The position numbers and the translations under genes were made by a program. DNA of 39,877 nt from Myxococcota bacterium. Lineage in GTDB: Bacteria > Myxococcota > XYA12-FULL-58-9 > JALHOP01. The notes under the pieces were generated by a model that had not been told where the DNA came from, did no database searches, and saw nothing but the letters and a program-made list of their open reading frames with translations. The stretch covers positions 1-39,877 of the forward strand of contig JBGGMJ010000103.1 in assembly GCA_041288095.1 (NCBI GenBank), written 5' to 3'. This document shows positions 12,801-30,586 of the stretch, piece by piece. Every line of letters begins with the position of its first letter. Within the stretch, counting starts at the first letter, position 1.

Positions 12801-12858
12801 GCCGGCCGGTGGCGGTCGCCGCGGACCCGCGGCTACCGAAAATCGGCCGCAGGCCTAA
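9841..12858 (+). CDS. infB: Translation initiation factor IF-2
   Basis: [11 protein letters not shown]-terminus, [29 protein letters not shown], and C-terminal beta-barrel domains; long Ala/Pro/Gly-rich linker. Confidence 0.98.
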
Positions 12859-12871
12859 GGCTCGAATGGTT

Positions 12872-12915
12872 CCGCGCGAGCACGCCGGCTGTTAGCAGTC
12901 GACGTGGTCGCGCGG
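12872..12915. terminator. Long imperfect inverted repeat after infB, possible bidirectional terminator
   Basis: CCGCGCGAgCACGcCGGCTG-ttag-CAGTCGaCGTGgTCGCGCGG; 20-bp stem with two mismatches, between the infB stop and a convergent ORF stop (12934). No U-tract. Confidence 0.55.
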
Positions 12916-12933
12916 TCGCGTAGACGAGCTCGT

Positions 12934-13296
12934 TCAGATGCTCGGCCCGTGGCGGTGCTGCATATCGTTTCGCGCCGGCGGTTCGGCGCGGGGCGCACCT
13001 TCTCCCGGTCCGTTGCGATGGGTGCGCTCGTTGCTCCCCGTGCCGCCAGGGTTCTGACGACGCAGGCGCACACCGTCTTCGTCGCGCTCCATGCGCGGCA
13101 GGAAAGGCGTCGCGGGTCGTCCTTCCAAACGGTTCGGCTCGCGCTGCGAGCGTTGCTCCACCCGATCCTGAGCCTCGCCGCCGTTGTTGGACAGCGGTGG
13201 TTCCCCCGTTCCGAGCGCCGGAGGCTCGCCCGCCGGCGGATCAAGCTCGCGGACGTTCGGGCTGAGTGAGTTGGGTCGCTGAGTGATGCCTTCCAT
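12934..13296 (-). CDS. Small, probably disordered orphan protein (120 aa, P/G/R/E-rich)
   Basis: GAGGAG RBS before ATG 13296 (MEGITQRPNSLSP...); low complexity, no signal peptide. Confidence 0.55.
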   Translation of the reverse strand: MEGITQRPNSLSPNVRELDPPAGEPPALGTGEPPLSNNGGEAQDRVEQRSQREPNRLEGRPATPFLPRMERDEDGVRLRRQNPGGTGSNERTHRNGPGEGAPRAEPPARNDMQHRHGPSI

Positions 13297-13362
13297 TTCT
13301 GACTCCTCATGTCGAGCATGTGCTCGGCAAAACATTGATCGGGGCTTGCTTCGTCGTCCGCT

Positions 13363-13623
13363 TTAGAGGGCGCCGCGGATATTGACGCCGCCGCCGGCGC
13401 CGGGGGTTTGCAGTTGCGGGCGAGACGGCACGCGGTCCTGCGGAGGCTCGGGCCGCACCTGCATGGGCTCGACGCGGTCACTCGACCCTGGATTGCGCGG
13501 CTCGCGTTGGTCCGGGCGCGGTCCCCGCGGGCCGGTAGGCTCGGAGCTTTGCGGGCGCGTCTGCGTTGGCGCCGAATCGGTCGGATGGGTTGACGGGCGG
13601 GTCGTGATGGCTAGGCCGGACAT
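13363..13623 (-). CDS. Small, probably disordered orphan protein (86 aa, P/S/T/R-rich)
   Basis: AGGAG RBS 5 nt before the ATG (MSGLAITTRPST...); in tandem with 12934-13296. Confidence 0.55.
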   Translation of the reverse strand: MSGLAITTRPSTHPTDSAPTQTRPQSSEPTGPRGPRPDQREPRNPGSSDRVEPMQVRPEPPQDRVPSRPQLQTPGAGGGVNIRGAL

Positions 13624-13803
13624 GATGGCTCCTGGTGATTCGGCGCATTGCCGCGCCTGCCAGGAGTGGATTGCAGTAGGTGTGCCGCCCCCACGCGAGC
13701 CGGAGCGCCCGCTAGCGCGCCGCGGACGCGGCCAAGAGCCCCCAAAACCCGACGGTTTGGGGAGGAGGGGGGAGCCAACTTTTTCCCACCCTCTTGCGGG
13801 CGG

Positions 13804-15114
13804 CTACCCCGAGCGGCCGAGCAAGCCGTGTTTGCGCAGCACGCGCTTGAAGTGATTGCGGTCCATCCCCGAGTTGCGCGCCGCCTTGGCTAGATTCCCC
13901 TCGGCGGCCGCGAGCTGCGCCATGGCGTACTCGCGCTCGAACGCGTTGATGACGCGGCGCTTGCTCTCGACGAGCGCGGACTTGGTGTCGATCTCGAGCG
14001 TCGGTTTCGCCTCGCCGCCTTTCTGCACCCGTTCGGGCACGCGGCCGACCTCGAGGACGCTGATGATGGCGTTGCGGAGCTCGCGCACGTTGCCTGGCCA
14101 ATCGTAGCCACTGGTGAAGAGCTCGAGCGTATCGGCGGAGAGCGTCAGATCGCGGCCGAGCTTGGTGAGGACGTGTGCGACCAGCGCCGGAATGTCTTCG
14201 CGACGCTCGCGCAGCGGCGGAATGAACACGGAGACGACACCCAAGCGGAAGAGCAGGTCTTCACGGAAGCGCTTCCGCGCCACGAGCCCTTCGAGGTCTT
14301 GATGCGTCGCCGAGATGATGCGGACGTCGACGCGGTTTTCGAGGTTCGAGCCGACGGCGCGCAGCTTCTTCTCGTCGATGACGCGCAGGAGCTTCGGCTG
14401 CGACTCGAGCGGCAGCTCGCCGATTTCGTCGAGAAACACGGTGCCGGCGTCGGCGCGCACGAACACGCCGGCGCGATCACCGGCGGCGCTGGTAAATGCG
14501 CCGCGCACGTGGCCGAAGAGCTCGGACTCGATGAGCTGCTTCGCGGCCGCGCCGCAGTCGAAGACCTCGAAGGGCTTACCGGCGCGGCGTGAATGGTCGT
14601 GGATGGCCCGCGCCACCATGGTCTTGCCGACCCCGGTTTCGCCCAAAAGCAGGACCGGCGAATCCACCGGCTCGAGCTGCTCGAGGACGTGGAAAAGGTG
14701 GCGCATGACCGGGGTCGCCCCGACGACATCGCCATAGCGGTCACGCTTACTGGTGGTGATGCCGGCGAGCTCGGGCGTCGCGAGCTGTATCTTCGAACGA
14801 CCGAGCGACAAGGTGGCGCCGAGCTCGACCACGACCTCGCTGCAGCGAACACCCAGGTAGAAGGTGCCGTTGCGGCTCCCGAGGTCGGTGACCTTGATGC
14901 CGCTATCCCCAAGCGTGATGCGGCAATGGCGGCGCGAGATGGCGGTGTCGTTGAGCCGCAACATGCACCCCGGCTCGGTGCCGATGTCGCACTCTCCGCG
15001 TGCCAGCAACACTTCGCGGCCGCCGTCGACACCGTCGATGACGCGGATGCGGACGCTTTCGACACGTTGGCCGCGCGCGGGTAGGCCGTCGGTGCGCGGT
15101 CGCGTATCGCTCAC
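13804..15114 (-). CDS. FHA-domain sigma54-dependent enhancer-binding protein (FHA-AAA+-Fis HTH)
   Basis: FHA motifs IGT...ISRRHC...DLGSRNGT; GETGVGKT, ELFGHVRGAFTSA, FLDEIGEL, FREDLLFRL, WPGNVRELRN; C-terminal GNLAKAARNSG HTH. Confidence 0.93.
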   Translation of the reverse strand: MSDTRPRTDGLPARGQRVESVRIRVIDGVDGGREVLLARGECDIGTEPGCMLRLNDTAISRRHCRITLGDSGIKVTDLGSRNGTFYLGVRCSEVVVELGATLSLGRSKIQLATPELAGITTSKRDRYGDVVGATPVMRHLFHVLEQLEPVDSPVLLLGETGVGKTMVARAIHDHSRRAGKPFEVFDCGAAAKQLIESELFGHVRGAFTSAAGDRAGVFVRADAGTVFLDEIGELPLESQPKLLRVIDEKKLRAVGSNLENRVDVRIISATHQDLEGLVARKRFREDLLFRLGVVSVFIPPLRERREDIPALVAHVLTKLGRDLTLSADTLELFTSGYDWPGNVRELRNAIISVLEVGRVPERVQKGGEAKPTLEIDTKSALVESKRRVINAFEREYAMAQLAAAEGNLAKAARNSGMDRNHFKRVLRKHGLLGRSG

Positions 15115-15121
15115 GTATCGC

Positions 15122-15484
15122 TCACGGTGGGTCCAGCGAAACGCGTGCTCGACTGACCTCGTCGCGCCGCCACGGATGCGTGACCGCGAGGGCGCACACC
15201 CGCGTTTCAGCCGCGAAGCACTCGATCTCGTGCACCAGCGGCGAGGGTGTGCCCTCGGTCGGGGTCAACAAGAGCACGATGGGATAGGCGTGCGACGCCG
15301 ACACGTCGACCACCACCTCGAGCCGTGCCTCGGCTTCGCCGATACCGTGCGAGCGGACCGCGATGCTGTCGAGGCCGCCGGGCAGCGGCAGTCTCTCGGA
15401 GGTGAGCTCGAGTAGGATCTGCGGCTCTTCGCCGCCGCAAGCCGTGCAACCCAGGAGCAGGGCGATAGCGACTCGCGCTACCAT
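15122..15484 (-). CDS. Small lipoprotein, beta-rich
   Basis: MVARVAIALLLGCTACGG lipobox; start overlaps the end of the upstream gene. Confidence 0.65.
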   Translation of the reverse strand: MVARVAIALLLGCTACGGEEPQILLELTSERLPLPGGLDSIAVRSHGIGEAEARLEVVVDVSASHAYPIVLLLTPTEGTPSPLVHEIECFAAETRVCALAVTHPWRRDEVSRARVSLDPP

Positions 15485-16080
15485 GGCCCAGCGCTCCCGC
15501 CGGTGGCTGTCTCTACACGGAAAGGTCCGTAGTCGTGATCGGGCAGACCGTCGCCGCTCGACGCCACCACGACGACGACCACCACCGTCGCGACGACGGC
15601 CGCGGTTGCCGCCCAAAACCATGGACGTGACCAGAACCCCGGCCGTTGGTCGGTTTGTACCGTCGTAGTCGCCGCGGGCTGCGCGATGTCGACGCGATCT
15701 TCGACCGGCGGAGCCGCGAGACGTGGGTCGGGGACAGGTGGCGAATGGACCGCGCGCGCAAGCTCGAGTGGCCCCCGCAGCTTGGGCGATACGCTGGGGG
15801 CTAGCTCGTAGCTCGGGTTGCGCTCGAGGATGGCCAGATAGGCGTCGCGCGCCTCGAGCTCGCGGCCCTCGATGGTATGGACGAAAGCGCGAAGCTCGTA
15901 GGCGCGAATGGTCTCGGCCGGGCTCAGCGACTCGCCGAGCGCGCGCTCCACCAGCGGCAAGACCCGCGCGTAGTCGAGCTCGGCGTACGCCAAAGCGGCC
16001 TGGTCGAGTGTCGAGCTCGCGGCGCGCGCCCCACCTGGATGTAGGCCGAACGCCAACACGAGGGCTGCTACGGGTCTCAT
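15478..16080 (-). CDS. Exported TPR-like protein with C-terminal membrane anchor (myxobacterial type)
   Basis: Signal peptide ending ARA, TPR-like helices (AYAELDYARVL...EARDAYLAILERNP), Pro-rich linker, WSRPWFW followed by a hydrophobic helix; GAAGGAAG RBS before ATG 16080. Confidence 0.75.
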   Translation of the reverse strand: MRPVAALVLAFGLHPGGARAASSTLDQAALAYAELDYARVLPLVERALGESLSPAETIRAYELRAFVHTIEGRELEARDAYLAILERNPSYELAPSVSPKLRGPLELARAVHSPPVPDPRLAAPPVEDRVDIAQPAATTTVQTDQRPGFWSRPWFWAATAAVVATVVVVVVVASSGDGLPDHDYGPFRVETATGGSAGPW

Positions 16081-16114
16081 CAGGCGCTTCCTTCGAACAA
16101 TCCGTGGTTTATGC

Positions 16115-16130
16115 AGCAAGTCGAATGCCA
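16115..16130 (-). promoter_or_regulatory. Putative sigma54 -24/-12 promoter for the TPR-lipoprotein-EBP operon
   Basis: Minus strand TGGCATTCGACTTGCT (GG-N10-GC, near consensus), about 35 nt upstream of ATG 16080. Confidence 0.7.
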
Positions 16131-16183
16131 GACGGCCGAGAGCCCCGCCTCTGCTAGCATGTGTAAGTATAGCAGGAGTCCTG

Positions 16184-17716
16184 TTGACGTCTCTGGGGCG
16201 CTACACCGTCATTTCGCGCCTCGCCGTTGGCGGCATGGCCGAGGTGTTTGCCGCCACCATGGCGGGCGCCGAAGGCTTCGTGAAACCCGTCGTCGTCAAG
16301 CGGCTGCTGCCTCACCTCTGCGCCAAGCCGGAGATCGTGCGCCTCTTTCTCAATGAAGCCCGCCTGGCCGCCCAGTTCAGCCATCCGAACCTCGCGCAGG
16401 TCTATGAGCTCTTCGAAGCAGGCGGCAGCTATTGCATCGCCATGGAGCAGCTCGACGGCATCGACCTGTATGAGCTCCAGCGGCGCTTGCCGGCGCCACG
16501 TCTGCCCGCTCGAGCGGTCGGTGAGATCATCGCCGGGGTTGCCGCCGGCCTGCACGTCGCGCATTCGACCCGCGACGCCTCGGGCAAACCCGTGGGCATC
16601 ATCCATCGCGACGTCTCGCCGACGAACGTCGTGGTGACGCGCAGTGGTGTCGTGAAGCTCGTCGACTTCGGCGTCGCCAAGCTGCTCGATTCGCAGGCGC
16701 CTACCCAGCGTCGCGGCAAGCCGCGCTATATGTCTCCGGAGCAGATCAGCGGCACCACCCTCGACGGCCGCAGCGACCTCTTTGCGCTCGGCGCCGTCGC
16801 CTACGAGCTGTTGACCGCGTCGCCGTGTTTCGATGGCGAGACCGTCATGGACGTCGCCCACGCGATCAACAACGCGGCGTTCACCCGCATCGGCGCCATC
16901 GCCCCGGGCGTCGATGCCCAGCTCGCCGGCCTCGTCGAGCGCATGTTGGCTCCAGAGCGCGATGTTCGCCCCGCCAACGCCGACGACGTGCGTCGCGAAG
17001 CGCGTGAAATCGTCAGCCGCCTGGGCGGGCCGGGTTACGCGCTGCTCGACGACATCGACGTCGCCATCTTTGGCTTCGACGGCGAGATCACGCACAAGAC
17101 CGCGATGACTGCTCGCTTCCTGGTCACCGAGGCGACCGAGATCGCCGCGCCGCCGGTCACCGAAGATCTCATACCGCTCCAGTCGCGGGAACAGCCGGTC
17201 GCACGCTCGAACCCACGCTTCTCCCCGCGCCTCATGGCGATATCGGTCATTGGCGCGGTGGTTGCATTAGCGACGGGCATGATTTGGCAGCATGCTCCCC
17301 GCGATGTCAGGGCCGAGACGGCGCCACCGGCCGCCGTCGCTCGCGCCGAGGCCCCGTCTGTCGCTATAGCGGACATGCCGGACGCATCGCCGCCTCCTGT
17401 CACGACCCCGCTCGTGCCCGAGCCGCAACGACGGCCCGTCAAGGCTCGCGTGCGTCCGCTCCAGCGTACAGCGCCCCCGCGCGAGGAGCCGGCGCGCGGC
17501 AGTGGCTCCTTGATCGTCAATAGCGAGCCTTGGTCAGATGTCTATCTCGATGGTGTCCGCGTCGGCATCACGCCCCTGGCGCTGCACGACGTCACCGCCG
17601 GGCCACACGACCTGCAGCTACGCAACGACGCGGCGGATTTTCGCGTACGCCGCGACGTCCACGTTCGCGCCGGCGAGACCACCAAGGCGTTCGAGCGCGC
17701 GGCACCCGACAGATGA
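16184..17716 (+). CDS. Hanks-type Ser/Thr protein kinase with TM helix and C-terminal PEGA-like domain
   Basis: LAVGGMAEV, VVKRL, HRDVSPTN, DFGVAK, YMSPEQ, DLFALG; TM LMAISVIGAVVALATGMIW; PEGA-like LIVNSEPWSDVYLDG...GITPL; TTG start with AGGAG RBS. Confidence 0.93.
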   Translation: MTSLGRYTVISRLAVGGMAEVFAATMAGAEGFVKPVVVKRLLPHLCAKPEIVRLFLNEARLAAQFSHPNLAQVYELFEAGGSYCIAMEQLDGIDLYELQRRLPAPRLPARAVGEIIAGVAAGLHVAHSTRDASGKPVGIIHRDVSPTNVVVTRSGVVKLVDFGVAKLLDSQAPTQRRGKPRYMSPEQISGTTLDGRSDLFALGAVAYELLTASPCFDGETVMDVAHAINNAAFTRIGAIAPGVDAQLAGLVERMLAPERDVRPANADDVRREAREIVSRLGGPGYALLDDIDVAIFGFDGEITHKTAMTARFLVTEATEIAAPPVTEDLIPLQSREQPVARSNPRFSPRLMAISVIGAVVALATGMIWQHAPRDVRAETAPPAAVARAEAPSVAIADMPDASPPPVTTPLVPEPQRRPVKARVRPLQRTAPPREEPARGSGSLIVNSEPWSDVYLDGVRVGITPLALHDVTAGPHDLQLRNDAADFRVRRDVHVRAGETTKAFERAAPDR

Positions 17717-19461
17717 GGTGCGCGTTTGCTCTAGCGGTCACGCTCTGCGCCGGTTGCGATGCCATCGTCGACGTCGCGCCCCAAATCGACTATGTGCCGT
17801 TCGGAGACGGTGATGTCGACTTCGCCGCCGACCACGACGCAAGCGACGGGGACGGCGGTGATGGACAGGGCGACCAGGACCGCGATGATGGTCCGCGGAC
17901 GAGCTTCGTCGAAGCAGTGACGCAGGCCGCGCCCGTGGCCTGGTATCGGTTCGGCCGCGAGGATCTCGGTAGCACCGTCGCCCGCGACGCAACCACCGGA
18001 GGCCATCCCGGGAGCTACGTCGGCGAGTCGCGGCCCGGCGCGTTCGGCGCGTTGGCTCACGATGCCGACACAGCGGCGACGACCGCCAGCGAGGTCGACG
18101 GTCCGATCAACATTCCCAACGTGGGCGTCTTCACGGCGGCGGGCGCCACCTTCACCGTGAGCCTCTGGGTCAACCTGCACCACACCGTCTACTTCGACAC
18201 CGTAGCGGGCCTGTTCGCCGTCGGTAGCGACGAGGTCGGACCGAGCCCCGCCGCGGCCTTTCGCATGCTCGTGGGCGCCGATCAGAAGGTGCACGTCCAG
18301 CTCGCGGGCGTCGACGTCTTCGTCGGCGCTACGGCGCTCGCCCCCGGCCGTTGGACGTTGGTCTCGGTGACCCGCGCTGTCGGTGGCGCGCTCAAGCTCT
18401 ACGTGGATGAAGCGCTGGACGGTGAGAGTCTCATGTCCACGATGGCGGTCTCGGACGCGACGGCGTACCTCGGCGGGGGACGTTACCCGGGCTCGGCTCA
18501 CTTCGATGAGCTCATGATCTTCAACCGCGAGCTCGGGGCCGCCGAGATCTCGAGCTTCGTCCGAGCGGGCCGTGACGGTACGCAGGAACCAGCATCGTGC
18601 GGCCAGACGGAGAGCCCGGGCGACGTGTTCCTCGAGGCCCAGACCATCGCGAACCATCGCTTCACCAGCTCGGTCGTCATCCGCGCGTCCAACCTGCAGC
18701 TACGCAACGTCCTCATCGAAGCGACCGGCGACGGTGTGTTCATCGACGGCGCCGACGACGTGGTCCTCGAGGACGTCGCCATCGTCGTTACGACGAGCAG
18801 CGACCAGCCGATTGGCGTGCGCTTGCGGAATTCGCACCGAGCGCGCCTTACCCGCGTCCGCGTCATCGGCGCCCCGCGCGGAGTGGTCGTCGAGAATTCG
18901 GACGACCTCGTCGCCCGTTTCGTCGTGGTGCGCGAGGCCATGACCAGGGGGGCCACGTACCCAACCGTCCACGTGGACAGCGCGTCCAGCGGCGCCCAGC
19001 TCGAGGACTTCGAGGTGGTCGACTTCGGCGCCACCCATACGGCCCCGGTCAGCATGGCGATCGAGAATCCCGATATCTTCGCGACCCGCGGCTTGCTCGC
19101 GGGTAACAACGCACTCGACAGCATCGGCGTTCGTGTCGCGACCGCCGGCGCGTCCAGCGAAACCGCGCTCACCGACATCGACGTCACCGATCACAACTAC
19201 GCGTGTCTCCAGGTGGCGAGCTGCGGGGATTTACTGGTGGCCGGTCTGCGCTGTCGCGACACCCGCTGCAATGGCGAAGTGCCGTCGGACATTGGGTACG
19301 CTATAACGGTCGATGCCGGGGTTGCAGGCGTCATCTGGGAATCGATCTACGACGACCTCTGCGGTCCCGCGCTCGGCGGCACGGGTAGCATCAGCACCGA
19401 GCTCGACTCCGCGGGGTTTCAAGCGCGGCAGCGACTGAACGCCAGGTTCTGCTGGGAGTAG
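17713..19461 (+). CDS. Large lipoprotein: acidic linker + LamG/concanavalin-like domain + parallel beta-helix domain
   Basis: MRCAFALAVTLCAGC lipobox (ATGA overlap with the kinase); PVAWYRF...FTVSLWV...WTLVSVT...LKLYVD...FDELMIFNREL (LamG); then beta-helix-like repeats (GVFIDGADDVVLEDVAI, GVRLRNSHRARLTRVRV, GVVVENSDDLV). Confidence 0.75.
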   Translation: MRCAFALAVTLCAGCDAIVDVAPQIDYVPFGDGDVDFAADHDASDGDGGDGQGDQDRDDGPRTSFVEAVTQAAPVAWYRFGREDLGSTVARDATTGGHPGSYVGESRPGAFGALAHDADTAATTASEVDGPINIPNVGVFTAAGATFTVSLWVNLHHTVYFDTVAGLFAVGSDEVGPSPAAAFRMLVGADQKVHVQLAGVDVFVGATALAPGRWTLVSVTRAVGGALKLYVDEALDGESLMSTMAVSDATAYLGGGRYPGSAHFDELMIFNRELGAAEISSFVRAGRDGTQEPASCGQTESPGDVFLEAQTIANHRFTSSVVIRASNLQLRNVLIEATGDGVFIDGADDVVLEDVAIVVTTSSDQPIGVRLRNSHRARLTRVRVIGAPRGVVVENSDDLVARFVVVREAMTRGATYPTVHVDSASSGAQLEDFEVVDFGATHTAPVSMAIENPDIFATRGLLAGNNALDSIGVRVATAGASSETALTDIDVTDHNYACLQVASCGDLLVAGLRCRDTRCNGEVPSDIGYAITVDAGVAGVIWESIYDDLCGPALGGTGSISTELDSAGFQARQRLNARFCWE

Positions 19462-19462
19462 C

Positions 19463-20902
19463 TCAGCTCTCCGCTTTGGCGTCCAGCTCCGCGCGCTTGG
19501 CGCGTGCCTTGTCCTCACCCTCCGAGATCGCCTCGTCGAAGAGCTCTTCGGAGTTGGCAAGCCGGCGGCGGCGACGCGCGTCCTGATACTCGAAGGCGAG
19601 GAAGGCTTTCGCGTGCTCCCCGAGACGACGCGTCGTGCTCGGTTGCAGGTTCGCGAAGAGGCAATTACCGACGGCCTGCGCGAGGTACGGCTCTTCGAAG
19701 CGACGTGGGTCGTCGAGCGATTTCGGACCTAGCTCGGCGACGACACCAGCAACCCAACGATTGAGGGACTCATAGATCGCCTCGACGCTGCCCGCGCTCT
19801 TGCAGCGCTGCGCCAGGACGTCGGCGATCAAGGTCTTCAGGCTGTCGCGCATTTCGGGCGTTGCCAGAACCGCGTCGCGGATGGGGTAGACCTTCGAGCC
19901 CTTTTGGGTGTGCGTGCCGTTGAGGTAGCCGGCGTTGTCGAAGCGCAGCAGGTAGTGCTTCTGGTAGCCGACGAAACAAGGCTCGAGCTCGATGTACATG
20001 GCGTGCGTGAAGGTGTTCACGGGGACGAGCTGGTGTGTGAGCTCGCTGTTGCCGTCGGCGAGCGCGGCGTCGATCTTGCGCAGGATGACCTCGGCTTCGT
20101 TCTCGAGAGCAGCTCGCATGAGCGGACCGTCGGCCTTCTGCGTGATGACGTAGACCCGACGCTCGATGTGCAGCGCTTCGGTGGTGACGGCGATCTCGCG
20201 GGTCAGGGCCTCACACAAGTCGGCGTTATCTGCCCCGTGCGCCGCGACCATGCCGACGAGCGACCGGATGCGCATCTCGAGCGCCCACTCCGGGTTCCAG
20301 CCTTCGGCGCGGTAGATGCCTGGCACGTCGTCGGCGTCCTTCAAGTGCGCGCAATACAGGGAGAGTTGATCGGCCTTGTTGAGCATCCGCTCATTGCCGC
20401 CGCTGATCGAGAGAGCGACGCGATCGAGGTCCGCATCGGTCGCGCCCGCGATGATGGGCGCGATCTTCTCGCGCACCCAGGCGAGGCTCACGCGCTTGGG
20501 ATCGATCAGCGCTTCGCGCAGCTTCGGGGTGGTGAGGAAGGTTCGCGCGGTCTCCGGCTGACCCTTCTCGAGCGCGATGTGCACCGCTTGTAAGCCGGTC
20601 GTGGTTTGCACGTTGAGAGCCGCGCCCAGGCCCGCGTACACGGCCGCGAGCTGAGGCAAGCCGCGGCGCGCGGCATCGAGCACCGGTACGAGACCGGGAT
20701 TGCCGAGCGGGGTGGTGAAGATGCGTGCGCGTTCCTCCGCGCTCATCGGCGCGCCCAGCGCCTTGCACACTTCGACGACGTCCATCCCATGGAGGGCTTT
20801 CGGCACGTCGGGCTTGTCCGAGGAGGCCGCGTCGGTCTGGTGCGTGTCGACGAGTGACGCCGATGCGAGCTGAACACTCTGGCTGTCGCGCACCTGTGTC
20901 AT
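19463..20902 (-). CDS. Orphan protein with degenerate ankyrin repeats and a putative permuted papain-like His-Asn-Cys domain (effector-like)
   Basis: Ankyrin-like GLVPVLDAARRGLPQL...GAALNVQTTTGLQAVHIALEKGQPETARTFL; THAMYI, RFDNAG, AQAVGNC. Start placed at ATG 20902, downstream of the promoter motif. Confidence 0.6.
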   Translation of the reverse strand: MTQVRDSQSVQLASASLVDTHQTDAASSDKPDVPKALHGMDVVEVCKALGAPMSAEERARIFTTPLGNPGLVPVLDAARRGLPQLAAVYAGLGAALNVQTTTGLQAVHIALEKGQPETARTFLTTPKLREALIDPKRVSLAWVREKIAPIIAGATDADLDRVALSISGGNERMLNKADQLSLYCAHLKDADDVPGIYRAEGWNPEWALEMRIRSLVGMVAAHGADNADLCEALTREIAVTTEALHIERRVYVITQKADGPLMRAALENEAEVILRKIDAALADGNSELTHQLVPVNTFTHAMYIELEPCFVGYQKHYLLRFDNAGYLNGTHTQKGSKVYPIRDAVLATPEMRDSLKTLIADVLAQRCKSAGSVEAIYESLNRWVAGVVAELGPKSLDDPRRFEEPYLAQAVGNCLFANLQPSTTRRLGEHAKAFLAFEYQDARRRRRLANSEELFDEAISEGEDKARAKRAELDAKAES

Positions 20903-20936
20903 GCGATGCAACCTACCGTTGTCGCCGTCCTCATTC

Positions 20937-20964
20937 GTTATCGGCCGCGACAATCGCGAGTTGC
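20937..20964 (-). promoter_or_regulatory. Sigma28 (FliA)-like promoter upstream of the ankyrin/protease-like gene
   Basis: Minus strand GCAAC-N14-GCCGATAAC; the -10 is an exact GCCGATAA with canonical 15-nt spacing from the GCAA tetramer. Confidence 0.65.
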
Positions 20965-21006
20965 GACGGGGAGATCTGCCAGGCCGGCGAAAACGAGCCT
21001 GCGCAA

Positions 21007-21035
21007 GCAACATCCGACCCCGCCCAGCCGATACT
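21007..21035 (+). promoter_or_regulatory. Sigma28-like promoter upstream of the 79-aa orphan
   Basis: GCAAC-N15-GCCGATACT. Confidence 0.55.
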
Positions 21036-21084
21036 CAACTCTGATCCCGAAAATGGGGATATTGCCGCCGCCGAGGAGGGACCC

Positions 21085-21324
21085 ATGACGAGGGCCATAG
21101 CTGGTCTGCGCTTCGCGCCCGCCGAGCATATTCAGCCCGCCGAGGCATCGGCGAAGCAGCGTCTTCAGGCCGCGCAGACGGTCACCCAGATCAACCGCGA
21201 CGTATCGGTGCGTGCCACTGACCATTCGAACAAGGTCGCGCAGTGGACAGCCCGCAACGGCCGCGCCGCGATAGCAGCGCGCTCCACGCTCGCGGCCCTG
21301 ACGCAGCCGTCGAGCTACGTCTAG
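21085..21324 (+). CDS. Small orphan protein (79 aa, Ala-rich, predicted helical)
   Basis: Strong GAGGAGG RBS before ATG 21085 (MTRAIAGLRFAPAEHIQP...). Confidence 0.6.
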   Translation: MTRAIAGLRFAPAEHIQPAEASAKQRLQAAQTVTQINRDVSVRATDHSNKVAQWTARNGRAAIAARSTLAALTQPSSYV

Positions 21325-21351
21325 GCAGACGGCAGCGCCGTTCGGAATGAC

Positions 21352-21379
21352 GCAACCCGATCGCCCCGCGGTCGATACT
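21352..21379 (+). promoter_or_regulatory. Sigma28-like promoter upstream of the tandem-domain lipoprotein
   Basis: GCAAC-N14-GTCGATACT. Confidence 0.55.
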
Positions 21380-21411
21380 GAACGCGTCAACCGAATAGGT
21401 AGAGGTTTTGC

Positions 21412-22680
21412 GTGCGCATCCTTCCTGGACTCCCGAATCTCGACGCTCAGCAGGTGCGTAAAGTCGCGACCCGCGCCCTGACCGCTGGAGCGGTCGGCCT
21501 CGCCGCTGTCGGCCTCTCCGGCTGCAAGAACGAAGACCCGCTGCCCCAGAGCCGAGCCGGAACGGGTAGCTACTCGACCGATTCGATCCGGCTGCCCGTC
21601 GACCCCGGCACGCACCTCATCCTGCTGGAAGTCGACCGTCCGGTCGCGCCGACCATCGTGCAATACGCCGGCGGGCAGGGCCCGGGCATCGGCCGCGACG
21701 ACGCCCTCGTCGACGGCAATCGGATGAACCAGTCGAAAAAGTTCAACCTCACGGGCCGCATCGCGAACTACACCATCCTCGGTCGCGACGCCGTCTTGAG
21801 CCAGAACATCGCAGCCATCGGCGCGCACATCGCGGTGGAGGCGACCGATCGCAAGACGACCATGCTCGGGCCGGGGCACGTCGTCGCTCTCAAGTGCCAG
21901 GCGAACCTCGAGGTGACCTCGACGCTGCGCCAGCAAGAGGTCCTCACCACCGAGAAGCTCGAGGAGCGTAAGATCCTCGAGTTCGACTACTGCGAGATGG
22001 CGATCCCGAAGACCAACGCGACGGAAACTGACTTCAGGAACCTGATCGCCGCGGCACAGCAAACGCCAGTGGACCTCGCGAAGTACGAAAACAAAGGCAT
22101 GTTCGCGGGCTACGCGTTCCCACTGCCGAAGAGTCGCGAGGGTGCGCCAAGCTACGAGGGCTCATCGACGACCCAACGCTTGCCCGCCGACAACTCGACG
22201 CATCTGCTCTGGCTCGAGGTTGGCTCGGCGCCGGTGGTCGACGTCAAGTCGAACCGCTACTCCAACACGACGGGCACCACCTTCGGCATCAGCGGTGCCT
22301 ATACGTATGGCAGCGTCAGCACTTATTCGAGCGGCGGTGACAAGCCGAAGACGATGATCGTCGGCCGAGTCTTGGGCTACGAGACCGTCGGCGGTGTGCA
22401 GGAGCTGGTGGTGCGCCACACTTCGGTGGGAGAGCAGATCGTCATCGAAGCAACCGATCGCAAGACCTCGGCGCTCATGGCTGGCGATCGCATTCTGCTG
22501 CGCTGCAACGGCGATACCTCAGTACTTTCCGCGGTGCGCGACAACGAGACGCTGACGCCCGAGAAGCTGCAACAGCGCCGGATCGGCGAGCTCGACAACT
22601 GCGAGGTTGCAACACCGACGATCAGCGCCACCCAGGGCGACTTCGATGCCGCCGCCGGCCGCGCGCCCAACCGCTCGTAG
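21412..22680 (+). CDS. Lipoprotein with two tandem copies of an unknown ~150-aa beta domain
   Basis: AVGLAAVGLSGC lipobox after an unusually long N-region; internal duplication (next feature); GTG start with GAGG upstream. Confidence 0.75.
   Translation: MRILPGLPNLDAQQVRKVATRALTAGAVGLAAVGLSGCKNEDPLPQSRAGTGSYSTDSIRLPVDPGTHLILLEVDRPVAPTIVQYAGGQGPGIGRDDALVDGNRMNQSKKFNLTGRIANYTILGRDAVLSQNIAAIGAHIAVEATDRKTTMLGPGHVVALKCQANLEVTSTLRQQEVLTTEKLEERKILEFDYCEMAIPKTNATETDFRNLIAAAQQTPVDLAKYENKGMFAGYAFPLPKSREGAPSYEGSSTTQRLPADNSTHLLWLEVGSAPVVDVKSNRYSNTTGTTFGISGAYTYGSVSTYSSGGDKPKTMIVGRVLGYETVGGVQELVVRHTSVGEQIVIEATDRKTSALMAGDRILLRCNGDTSVLSAVRDNETLTPEKLQQRRIGELDNCEVATPTISATQGDFDAAAGRAPNRS
21589..22644 (+). repeat. 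Intragenic domain duplication (21589-22035 and 22177-22644)
   Basis: RLPVDPGTHLILLEV / RLPADNSTHLLWLEV; IAVEATDRKT / IVIEATDRKT; LKC / LRC; EVLTTEKL / ETLTPEKL; EFDYCEMA / ELDNCEVA; ATETDF / ATQGDF. Confidence 0.9.
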
Positions 22681-22725
22681 CGCGCACGCTTGCTTCTCGC
22701 GGTGACCATCGCTACGCCTAGCGCG

Positions 22726-29857: not shown

Positions 29858-30142
29858 ATGACCGAGAACCTCGCACGCGTCACCTTGTGGATCACCGGCC
29901 AGGTCCAGGGCGTCTTCTACCGCGCCTCCGCCCTCGAAAAGGCCCAGAGCCTGAGTCTCTCGGGCTTCGTGAAGAATTTGTCCGACGGTAGTGTCGAGAT
30001 CGTTGCCGAGGGGCCACGTTACGCGCTCGAGCAGTTCGTCGATTGGGCCAAGCAGGGCCCGCCAGCCGCCGAAGTCGAAAATGTCAGCGCGCGGTGGGGC
30101 ACTTACCTCGAAGAGTTTCGCACCTTCATGATTGTCCGCTAG
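29858..30142 (+). CDS. acyP: Acylphosphatase
   Basis: GQVQGVFYR, GFVKNLSDGSVE, GPPAAEV; GAGGG RBS before ATG 29858. Confidence 0.95.
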   Translation: MTENLARVTLWITGQVQGVFYRASALEKAQSLSLSGFVKNLSDGSVEIVAEGPRYALEQFVDWAKQGPPAAEVENVSARWGTYLEEFRTFMIVR

Positions 30143-30506
30143 GGCGGACGTCGGCGTGATCGAGGCCGCTGGAGATGACGGGCAGCTGTGTGTACCGAGT
30201 GGCGGCTCGCCGCCGGAGGCCATCGTCGCGTTCGTCGGCCTGCCGTAAAGAAAGCTTGCCCTGCAGCTCGCGCAACCGCTCGTCGTAGGCTTGCTGCGCC
30301 GCGGTGTTCACCTTGCCGTCGGGGCCCGGGCGCGGCATCTCCAGGGCTTCCATCTCGGCCAGTAGGCCGGCCAGCGTCGCCAACGTGCGCTCGAGGTTTT
30401 GCGCCGCCATCTGCATCGCGTCGTTGGCGGCGTTCTCCATGCCCAGCGGTCTTTCTGGAGCGCTCGCCGCTGGCGTACCGGTACCGGTGTTGAAGATGCG
30501 GATCAT
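30126..30506 (-). CDS. Orphan helical protein (126 aa) with PGPDGKV motif; paralog of 25556-26578
   Basis: Ungapped similarity to the N-terminus of 25556-26578; 3' end overlaps acyP by 17 nt. Confidence 0.7.
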   Translation of the reverse strand: MIRIFNTGTGTPAASAPERPLGMENAANDAMQMAAQNLERTLATLAGLLAEMEALEMPRPGPDGKVNTAAQQAYDERLRELQGKLSLRQADERDDGLRRRAATRYTQLPVISSGLDHADVRPSGQS

Positions 30507-30586
30507 CCCAGAAGTACCGCCGTACGGGCGCCCGCGGTTGCCGTAGCCAGTGACGGACGGACATGTGGGTCTGCTGGGAGGACCCG

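Follow-up and report, generated by a model that had tools for sequence, protein, structure and literature searches.

Large non-flagellar regulons of sigma28-family factors and the type III secretion system of myxobacteria (T3SS*) are both already known. In the attack phase of Bdellovibrio bacteriovorus, the flagellar FliA acts through TTAAG-N16-CCGATA on many non-flagellar genes (PMC3627812). The T3SS* of Myxococcus xanthus (MXAN_2434-2464) is described as needle-less, with unknown effectors (PMC10433427, PMC12075869, PMC3459982), is required for prey lysis (PMC10433427, PMC12075869), and belongs to an early branch in the descent of injectisomes from the flagellum (PMC3459982); a Kil/Tad pilus has been proposed for the passage of its cargo across the outer membrane (PMC12075869). 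The flagellum itself exports non-flagellar proteins, such as Cia in Campylobacter and YplA in Yersinia (PMC2764114). No paper linking T3SS* to a sigma factor, a promoter or an effector list of its own was found in a literature survey of incomplete coverage. Here we analyze three promoter-like sites within a stretch of 39,877 nucleotides from a Myxococcota bacterium (assembly GCA_041288095.1, contig JBGGMJ010000103.1, positions 1 to 39,877), referred to as a whole as the window. The sites probably belong to a family of about 280 promoters, served by a sigma factor encoded in a T3SS* cluster, with T3SS* substrates encoded by most of the genes behind them.

The genome hosting the window is labelled G000 (5.85 Mb, 66% G+C, 90% complete) and its sister genomes G001 to G003; C-numbers denote contigs of the host genome and f-numbers denote families. 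The initial annotation had singled out four strings as candidate promoters of a sigma28-family factor with a GCAA(C) -35 box. All four are present, and they were scored by a two-box matrix, built from the host genome itself by iterative training on sites near starts. Three of them reach 24.0 to 25.5 bits and are promoter-like; the fourth was rejected, its score being that of the background and the near-invariant A of CGA being missing. The strings, and the genes behind the first three, are listed below.

20937..20964, minus strand: promoter site 1, GCAAC-N14-GCCGATAAC, 24.0 bits, 35 nt upstream of the 479-aa gene (start 20902)
21007..21035, plus strand: promoter site 2, GCAAC-N15-GCCGATACT, 25.5 bits, 50 nt upstream of the 79-aa gene (start 21085)
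21352..21379, plus strand: promoter site 3, GCAAC-N14-GTCGATACT, 24.2 bits, 33 nt upstream of the 422-aa gene (start 21412)
30513..30541, minus strand: proposed site 4, preceding a 126-aa gene, 7.1 bits, not supported
19463..20902, minus strand: 479-aa candidate T3SS* substrate, with a Ser/Thr/Gln-rich leader lacking a signal peptide, ankyrin repeats and a C-terminal His300-Asn323-Cys414 domain
21085..21324, plus strand: 79-aa protein, function not assigned, signal-less, no Pfam or NCBIfam match
21412..22680, plus strand: 422-aa predicted lipoprotein, with a hydrophobic stretch and a lipobox (Cys38), and two tandem domains of about 190 aa

The motif recurs throughout the host genome, and its occurrence is not due to chance. 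Exact matches to GCAAC-Nn-G[CT]CGATA number 59 at n=14 and 22 at n=15, with 0 to 3 at each of nine other spacings between 10 and 20; matrix hits above 18 bits number 195 at N14 and 87 at N15, with 2 to 14 at each of 11 other spacings. The 282 sites of at least 18 bits (GCAAC-N14/15-xxCGATA) are intergenic in 260 cases, and 223 are located within 120 nt of a start. Genes were predicted by a custom codon-model caller, which returned 5064 of them. In a matrix-free count, GCAAC-N16/17-CGATA was found within the 170 nt upstream of 145 out of 4871 genes in sense orientation and of 48 in antisense orientation, compared with none of 3983 mid-gene stretches and 0 to 2 occurrences in each of 10 dinucleotide shuffles. 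A site of at least 18 bits within 130 nt is found for 225 genes, and the regulon comprises about 225-260 first genes of those called, rather than the three or four genes originally considered.

In the matrix, the -10 box is C, G and A at 99%, T at 87% and A at 92%, and agrees with the sigma28 element (GC)CGATAA (bioRxiv 2020.01.02.893370). The -35 box differs from the TAAA(G)/TTAAG of sigma28: GCAAC dominates, being found with 76 of 326 intergenic -10 boxes of the host genome at N14, and TAAAG is not among the top 14 words at this position. A second, TAAAG-type regulon in the same genome was considered and rejected, as no enrichment is observed at N14/15 (5 and 7 intergenic matches, versus 1-5 elsewhere).

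Two FliA-like genes, both scoring 164-166 bits, are found in the host genome, on C92 and C127, together with a type III cluster. The C92 gene (C92:35188-36072), which adjoins the non-flagellar type III cluster with no FlgM beside it, has TIGR02479 as its best NCBIfam match; the closest sigma homologues of the host genome are from Myxococcota, or from uncultured Bdellovibrionales by NCBI naming. Its product aligns over the full length with solved FliA and WhiG structures and keeps region 2.4-3.0 (RIRG, D, R, W..R); 7 PDB sequences were matched at E<=1e-15, every one of them a FliA, a WhiG or a sigma factor, the best with E 3.8e-27. The region 4.2 helix is altered, from VSESRVSQLH to LSKSWTSRLH. 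The S[KR]SW signature is common to 46 out of 71 distinct FliA-like rows, which, together with one truncated row, form one clade with an SH-like support of 99 (FastTree only). Residues 584 and 589 of sigma70, which we take to be the counterparts of the changed helix positions, provide an analogy by which the E-to-K and Q-to-R changes would fit a switch of the -35 box from T..G to G..C. The C127 gene is followed by a FlgM-like gene (pair C127:21759-22853, L011:6760-7854); the pair lies away from any flagellar gene, and a TCAAG-type box is located upstream of flgM.

The C92 cluster beside the sigma includes SctJ, L, N, Q, R, S and T, with FliO- and FliJ-like genes, while SctV is on C31, SctU on C41 and LcrH/SycD-like chaperones on C41, C10 and C181. 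SctV scores 850.8 bits (cut-off 692) versus 694.6 bits as FlhA (under the cut-off of 772); SctR, S and Q are above their cut-offs, SctN, J, T, U, L and the chaperones match below theirs, and the SctI match is weak (E 0.008). By these matches, the system shows the SctV-rather-than-FlhA profile of a T3SS*. A search for CesT-type chaperones gave no match, and neither did its control. The ends of C41 and C10 share the same reading-frame sequence; the two contigs overlap and probably join, and the overlap puts four strong sites and two chaperones directly behind sctU. The M. xanthus system, compared via published descriptions, shares the SctJ/I/Q/RSTUV/N/L core, several LcrH-like chaperones, the lack of a secretin in the cluster and the restriction to Myxococcota, the host cluster being split over several contigs. 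Unlike those accounts, whose available portions name no regulator, the clusters described here hold a sigma factor, a predicted promoter and needle-like small proteins.

The sigma gene is the last of an operon composed of a needle-like gene, a TPR chaperone, a small gene and the sigma itself, with a site upstream. Fourteen loci were compared, each from a genome that either carries this sigma or has the operon truncated at a contig end. In 13 of these loci (G000, G005, G023, G029, G037, G039, G040, G046, G050, G063, G141, G160 and G175, not G016), the needle-like gene has a site of 15.9-26.1 bits in front of it. No such site is present in the four loci of family f10, where the sigma was not found. 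A second site is often located upstream of the SctI-like rod gene, and the long T3SS* locus of G029 carries six sites of at least 17.5 bits.

A profile built from 13 proteins, either site-led or encoded in the clusters, matches, with E 6e-5, the 43-aa chain 7Y6C_F, which belongs to a T3SS needle-chaperone complex; the entry labels the chain as co-chaperone, and we take it to be the needle C-terminus. No Pfam or NCBIfam match to a needle family was found for the needle-like proteins. By sequence, the "needle-less" label of T3SS* may be wrong. The needle-like C-terminus is observed in the host genome at C92:37386-37943, C181:33054-33959 and C10:81060-82268, and in three tandem copies in G029 (L171:9897-10963); the needle-like proteins of T3SS* loci are either small or leader-extended. 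In four f10 genomes (G022, G124, G098, G086; L228, L305, L306, L307), two separate frames cover the match to the needle-like gene, with the break similarly placed in all four, which may reflect degeneration or recoding.

The relation between motif and sigma was evaluated by counting GCAAC-N16/17-CGATAA in 151 genomes of the phylum, which are kin and do not represent independent samples, so that a p-value overstates the difference: the median count is 11 in the 89 genomes with the sigma and 1 in the 62 without it, and an excess of at least 5 over a reversed-pattern control is observed in 70/89 and 11/62, respectively. The split holds within families f17 and f12 (for the latter, counts of 4-62 vs 2, 2 and 2), and family f21, where none of 12 genomes has the sigma, shows a median count of 0. 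Five of the 11 exceptions without a sigma can be accounted for: a contig end cuts the gene in G005 and G175, and cuts the operon ahead of the sigma in G016 and G160, while the sigma of G023 is of a divergent SRSW form. Small genomes (1.3-3.4 Mb) of family f16, such as G094, G097 and G100 (L280, L281), also retain the T3SS*-linked sigma and the rod-gene site, and are possibly from host-associated Myxococcota.

A different reader, the flagellar FliA or the FliA-FlgM pair of C127, with the flagellum exporting the cargo as for Campylobacter Cia and Yersinia YplA, might be suggested by the pair itself and by the flagellar cluster and third, canonical FliA present in all three sister species. Flagellin and rod genes were not found in the host genome at its 90% completeness, and this absence may be an assembly gap, since all three sister species have the cluster. 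Flagellar and flgM promoters, however, read T[AC]AAG. Among 22 upstream regions read by eye, flagellar boxes were seen in 7: T[AC]AAG-N14-GnCGATG is located upstream of fliC and flgM in G001 and G032 and of one flagellin each in G008 and G014, and TCAAG-N14-GCCGTT precedes the flgM-like gene of the host genome, while no flagellar-type box was seen in these regions for the flagellins of G025 and G039 and for the tandem copies. The GCAAC site does not occur at the flagellin or flgM starts of the relatives examined. Moreover, in the flagellin-less G004, G010 and G015, all complete or near-complete genomes, the T3SS*-linked sigma is the sole FliA-like gene, and the exact sites number 31, 15 and 35, respectively; the motif is absent or nearly so in the flagellated genomes lacking that sigma (G024, G032, G038). 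On the grounds of the separate flagellar box and of this distribution, the flagellar reader or route was rejected as highly improbable. Of the type III/flagellar export originally suggested, the type III part is backed by a system in the genome; the flagellar box and the distribution of the motif speak against the flagellar part.

Promoters of extracytoplasmic function (ECF) sigma factors, with AAC at -35, CG at -10 and a gap of 16-17 nt, also resemble the motif, and a same-strand, site-led gene lies upstream of 3 of the other 38 sigma-70-family genes of the host genome (C126:18145, C53:12200, C12:9165), which counts in favour of an ECF reader and against a FliA-like one. An ECF sigma is nevertheless very unlikely to read the sites, as the conserved site precedes the operon of the FliA-like sigma across the phylum, motif counts track that sigma, and the -10 box equals the C-G-A-T-A-A element of sigma28 (bioRxiv 2020.01.02.893370). 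The FliA-family sigma encoded in the T3SS* cluster is, judging from sequence, very probably the reader, because of its likeness to solved structures and its altered helix, the site at its own operon, the co-occurrence with the motif, the flagellin-less genomes and the separate flagellar box. A promoter of the sigma28 family whose -35 box reads GCAA(C), as first proposed, is thereby supported.

The products of the regulon were analyzed for 136 genes, which are those of the 60 densest loci except for a single frame of 4157 aa. A Pfam match (E<=1e-6) is found for 30 of them and for 45 out of 60 random site-less neighbours (p 3e-12). The regulon genes are thus 78% Pfam-less, and the remainder are mostly hydrolases: proteases of families S8 (twice), S9 (twice), M4, M14, S41 and C26, along with two serpins, a lipase, abhydrolases and two nucleases. 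The non-flagellar nature of the cargo, already supposed in the initial annotation, is supported. A hydrophobic N-terminus, used as a crude proxy for a signal peptide, is present in 22/224 regulon genes versus 1499/4428 other genes, and in just one of the 30 Pfam-positive ones; a lipobox is found in 4 regulon genes versus 387 others. Residues 2-25 contain 33% S/T/P/N/Q in the regulon and 24% in other genes (25% in first-in-operon controls).

Thermolysins, subtilases and one S41 protease of the host genome have long low-complexity leaders instead of signal peptides; two site-less S41 paralogues do carry signals. Four tandem thermolysin-family genes, all signal-less, are located at C69:11926-19568 (L245), the first of them behind a 17.4-bit site. 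Two serpin-domain genes (C134:41728-43230 and C79:9168-11339), also signal-less, lie behind strong sites. Serpins and the ankyrin enzyme of the window are a hint of eukaryotic targets.

In four complete Myxococcaceae-type genomes (G141, G157, G163, G176), 40 of the 55 strict sites were examined, 20 of which were hand-chosen with a preference for CGATAA. A downstream open reading frame (ORF) follows 37 sites, and a hydrophobic N-terminus is found in 2 of the 37. The 11 Pfam matches among 29 scanned ORFs are a thermolysin, two subtilases, two amidases, a peptidoglycan-binding protein, an endonuclease I, an M28 peptidase, an RTX-M91 peptidase and two DUFs; site-led LysM-SLT and peptidoglycan-binding-CHAP genes are added by G029. 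The pattern [DS]xF[ED] occurs within residues 15-75 of 18 out of 35 Myxococcaceae-type candidates, among which homologues recur, compared with 95 out of 2900 host-genome controls, and is a possible chaperone or export-gate signal. Its carriers include L250, L256, L261, L262, L273, L274, L285, L292, L298 and L301. The site-led, signal-less amidases, proteases and nucleases are candidate prey-lysis effectors of T3SS*, and such lytic cargo fits the role in prey lysis reported for this system (PMC10433427, PMC12075869).

Export of most of the cargo by the type III route appears likely. The same sigma might instead control a broad lifestyle switch, for which the attack-phase FliA regulon of Bdellovibrio offers a precedent (PMC3627812), with a minority of type III cargo and many products staying in the cell or leaving by lysis, vesicles or Sec. 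The size of the regulon, the presence in it of lipoproteins and metabolic enzymes, and a leader composition common to other orphans all agree with such a switch. Hydrolase families that normally have signal peptides are, however, signal-less here, and the small Myxococcaceae-type regulons contain almost nothing but lytic enzymes and orphans that lack signals and have a leader motif in common. A lifestyle switch with little type III cargo is accordingly regarded as unlikely.

Besides the kinship of the genomes compared, several observations weigh against a T3SS*-linked sigma that drives exported cargo. The 164 bits of the C92 sigma are below the TIGR02479 cut-off of 189.6, the sites at its own operon in the host genome are middling (16.2 and 16.8 bits, with 14.3 bits before the rod gene), and one GCAAC site of 19.1 bits lies upstream of flgH in G025. 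An excess of motifs below 3 is observed in 13 of the 89 sigma-bearing genomes. Of the 11 sigma-less genomes with an excess of at least 5, six are not accounted for, namely G031 and five genomes of family f10; some of the matches in f10 resemble coding sequence, and the search for a divergent sigma in this family gave flagellar-type or weak matches only. Regulon members include oxidoreductases, a desaturase and an aminotransferase, which resemble ordinary cytoplasmic enzymes. Ten Pfam-less, signal-less control genes average 34% S/T/P/N/Q, so that leader composition is not specific, and [DS]xF[ED] is not enriched in the host regulon (10/201), whose cargo shows no shared leader motif beyond composition. 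The three secretin genes of this fragmented assembly are found on C29, C40 and C197 only, none on T3SS contigs.

With the T3SS*-linked sigma as reader, the following course may be proposed. A FliA paralogue would have moved with the export apparatus as the myxobacterial T3SS arose from the flagellum. Descending from the flagellar FliA, it would retain the extended -10 contact. Its recognition helix, with SKSW[TA]SR in place of [ED]SR[VIA][CS]Q, would read GCAAC as -35 box rather than T[AC]AAG; the re-coded sigma could then run beside the flagellar FliA. Its targets would be its own operon, the genes of the rod and filament subunits and those of the dispersed late export cargo, in the way that FliA activates flagellin. 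An N-terminal signal would direct the cargo, unfolded, through T3SS*, for action on prey or on host cells. For roughly one regulon member in ten, the 422-aa lipoprotein among them, the regulation would be shared but the exit would be by Sec. New cargo might join by gaining the 28-nt promoter and a disordered leader, a way of recruitment which fits the rapid gain and loss observed at the island of the window.

Such an arrangement is like the Bdellovibrio regulon in its sigma28-family factor, in its non-flagellar genes, including proteases and unknowns, and in the -10 box CCGATA with similar spacing. It differs in that the factor is a separate paralogue, located in a T3SS cluster; its helix is changed, its box is GCAAC, and a flagellar FliA that uses another box exists alongside it. 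As in the flagellar class 3 (sigma28/FlgM) regulon, the promoter would drive a filament subunit and late substrates with N-terminal type III signals; unlike class 3, the machine is not flagellar, the -35 box is different, no FlgM is found beside the sigma, and the cargo is far larger and mostly orphan. That the earliest-branching injectisome kept the flagellar late-gene switch, with a re-coded FliA paralogue driving a needle-like filament and the whole effector set, has in our judgement an even chance of being correct. In that case, the intermediate between flagellum and injectisome would have inherited class 3 logic, its -35 code being orthogonal, and one motif would enumerate prey-lysis effectors: some ten for each Myxococcaceae genome when matched strictly, and more than 200 in the host genus, whose arsenal would be of Legionella scale. 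Some 200 orphan genes of the host genus are marked by the motif as a likely secreted arsenal. For cultured myxobacteria, if sigma and promoter regulate T3SS*, a short effector list would follow (amidases, lytic transglycosylase, CHAP, thermolysin, subtilases, endonuclease, M91 peptidase).

The initial descriptions of the three window genes, an ankyrin protein with a protease-like domain, a small protein and a tandem-domain lipoprotein, stand. Within the 479-aa protein, which has no Pfam match, two ankyrin repeats (about aa 64-130) are recognized with E 6e-11. Relatives from the genus are about 80% identical, and the C-terminal domain has 36 distant relatives, so that the protein is not a strict orphan, as it had been called. 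In 35 aligned sequences of this domain (22% mean identity), H300, Y303, N323 and G325 are invariant, and Q409, G412, N413 and C414 are found in at least 90%. Atlas places the protein beside AnkD/LegA15 clusters, with features at 0.97 and a structure TM below 0.5. When a low-confidence model (pLDDT 44.6), obtained from a 5-sequence alignment, was compared by VIA-align, Legionella AnkH came first (Z 7.8, root-mean-square deviation (rmsd) 4.9, 179 residues aligned) and AnkD fifth (Z 7.3, rmsd 5.9, 208 aligned); these are the two longest alignments over residues 167-464, both under Z 8. With the same model, Foldseek gave no match at E<=0.001. A PDB sequence search with the C-terminal domain produced no match, and one with the 35-sequence profile produced ankyrin repeats only, among the 60 matches listed.

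As in AnkH and AnkD (LegA15) of Legionella (PDB 6MCA, 7EW8), the ankyrin repeats are followed by His, Asn and Cys residues (H268-N290-C361 in LegA15 vs H300-N323-C414), although identity is 12% and the Legionella proteins are type IV cargo. The protein is best described as resembling AnkH/AnkD (LegA15), with ankyrin repeats and a conserved His-Asn-Cys domain. Since the LegA15 residues were initially interpreted as a protease triad, and LegA15 subsequently proved to be a GTPase that uses this Cys (PMC9757750), putative cysteine hydrolase, substrate not assigned, seems a fair label. Its leader contains 46% S/T/P/N/Q, that of the signal-less 79-aa protein 25%, a composition which is not specific in either case. 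The 79-aa gene, whose open frame and sequence are retained in G001, is judged from sequence to be a real gene. The halves of the 422-aa protein are 38% identical over 188 aa (E 3e-33); no Pfam or NCBIfam family and no Atlas match were found for it, its own record being the only match among 7984 scored candidates. Type III export would not apply to this product, because its lipoprotein signal predicts an exit by Sec.

The sister genomes differ in how much of the locus they retain. Site 1 is found in G001 (25.1 bits, with a diverged spacer) and in G002 (21.7 bits), and an inverted paralogue of the 479-aa gene in G003 has its own site, of 24.7 bits. Site 2 is retained in G001 as GCACC-N15-GCCGATACT (18.6 bits), and neither site 3 nor the 422-aa gene is present at the equivalent position in G001-G003. 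The three genes sit in a variable island, located between infB and a DUF503 gene; the 479-aa gene directly follows infB in both G001 and G002, and the 79-aa gene is retained in G001. The island, of about 10 kb (window 12858-22690), also carries an FHA-sigma54 activator, a Ser/Thr kinase with a PEGA domain and a laminin-G protein, and is not found at the equivalent position in G001 and G002. The G002 homologue of the 479-aa gene (L189:1503-2926) is split into frames of 90 and 388 aa, with the promoter site intact.

As to the 126-aa gene behind the rejected fourth string, its G002 homologue (17/29 identical, E 1e-9) has no site of at least 10 bits, and a comparison with a chaperone-linked gene on C181 was set aside as a weak likeness only (E 0.002). 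The gene (window 30126-30506) is similar to the first part of a 340-aa G002 protein, and is possibly what remains after a truncation.

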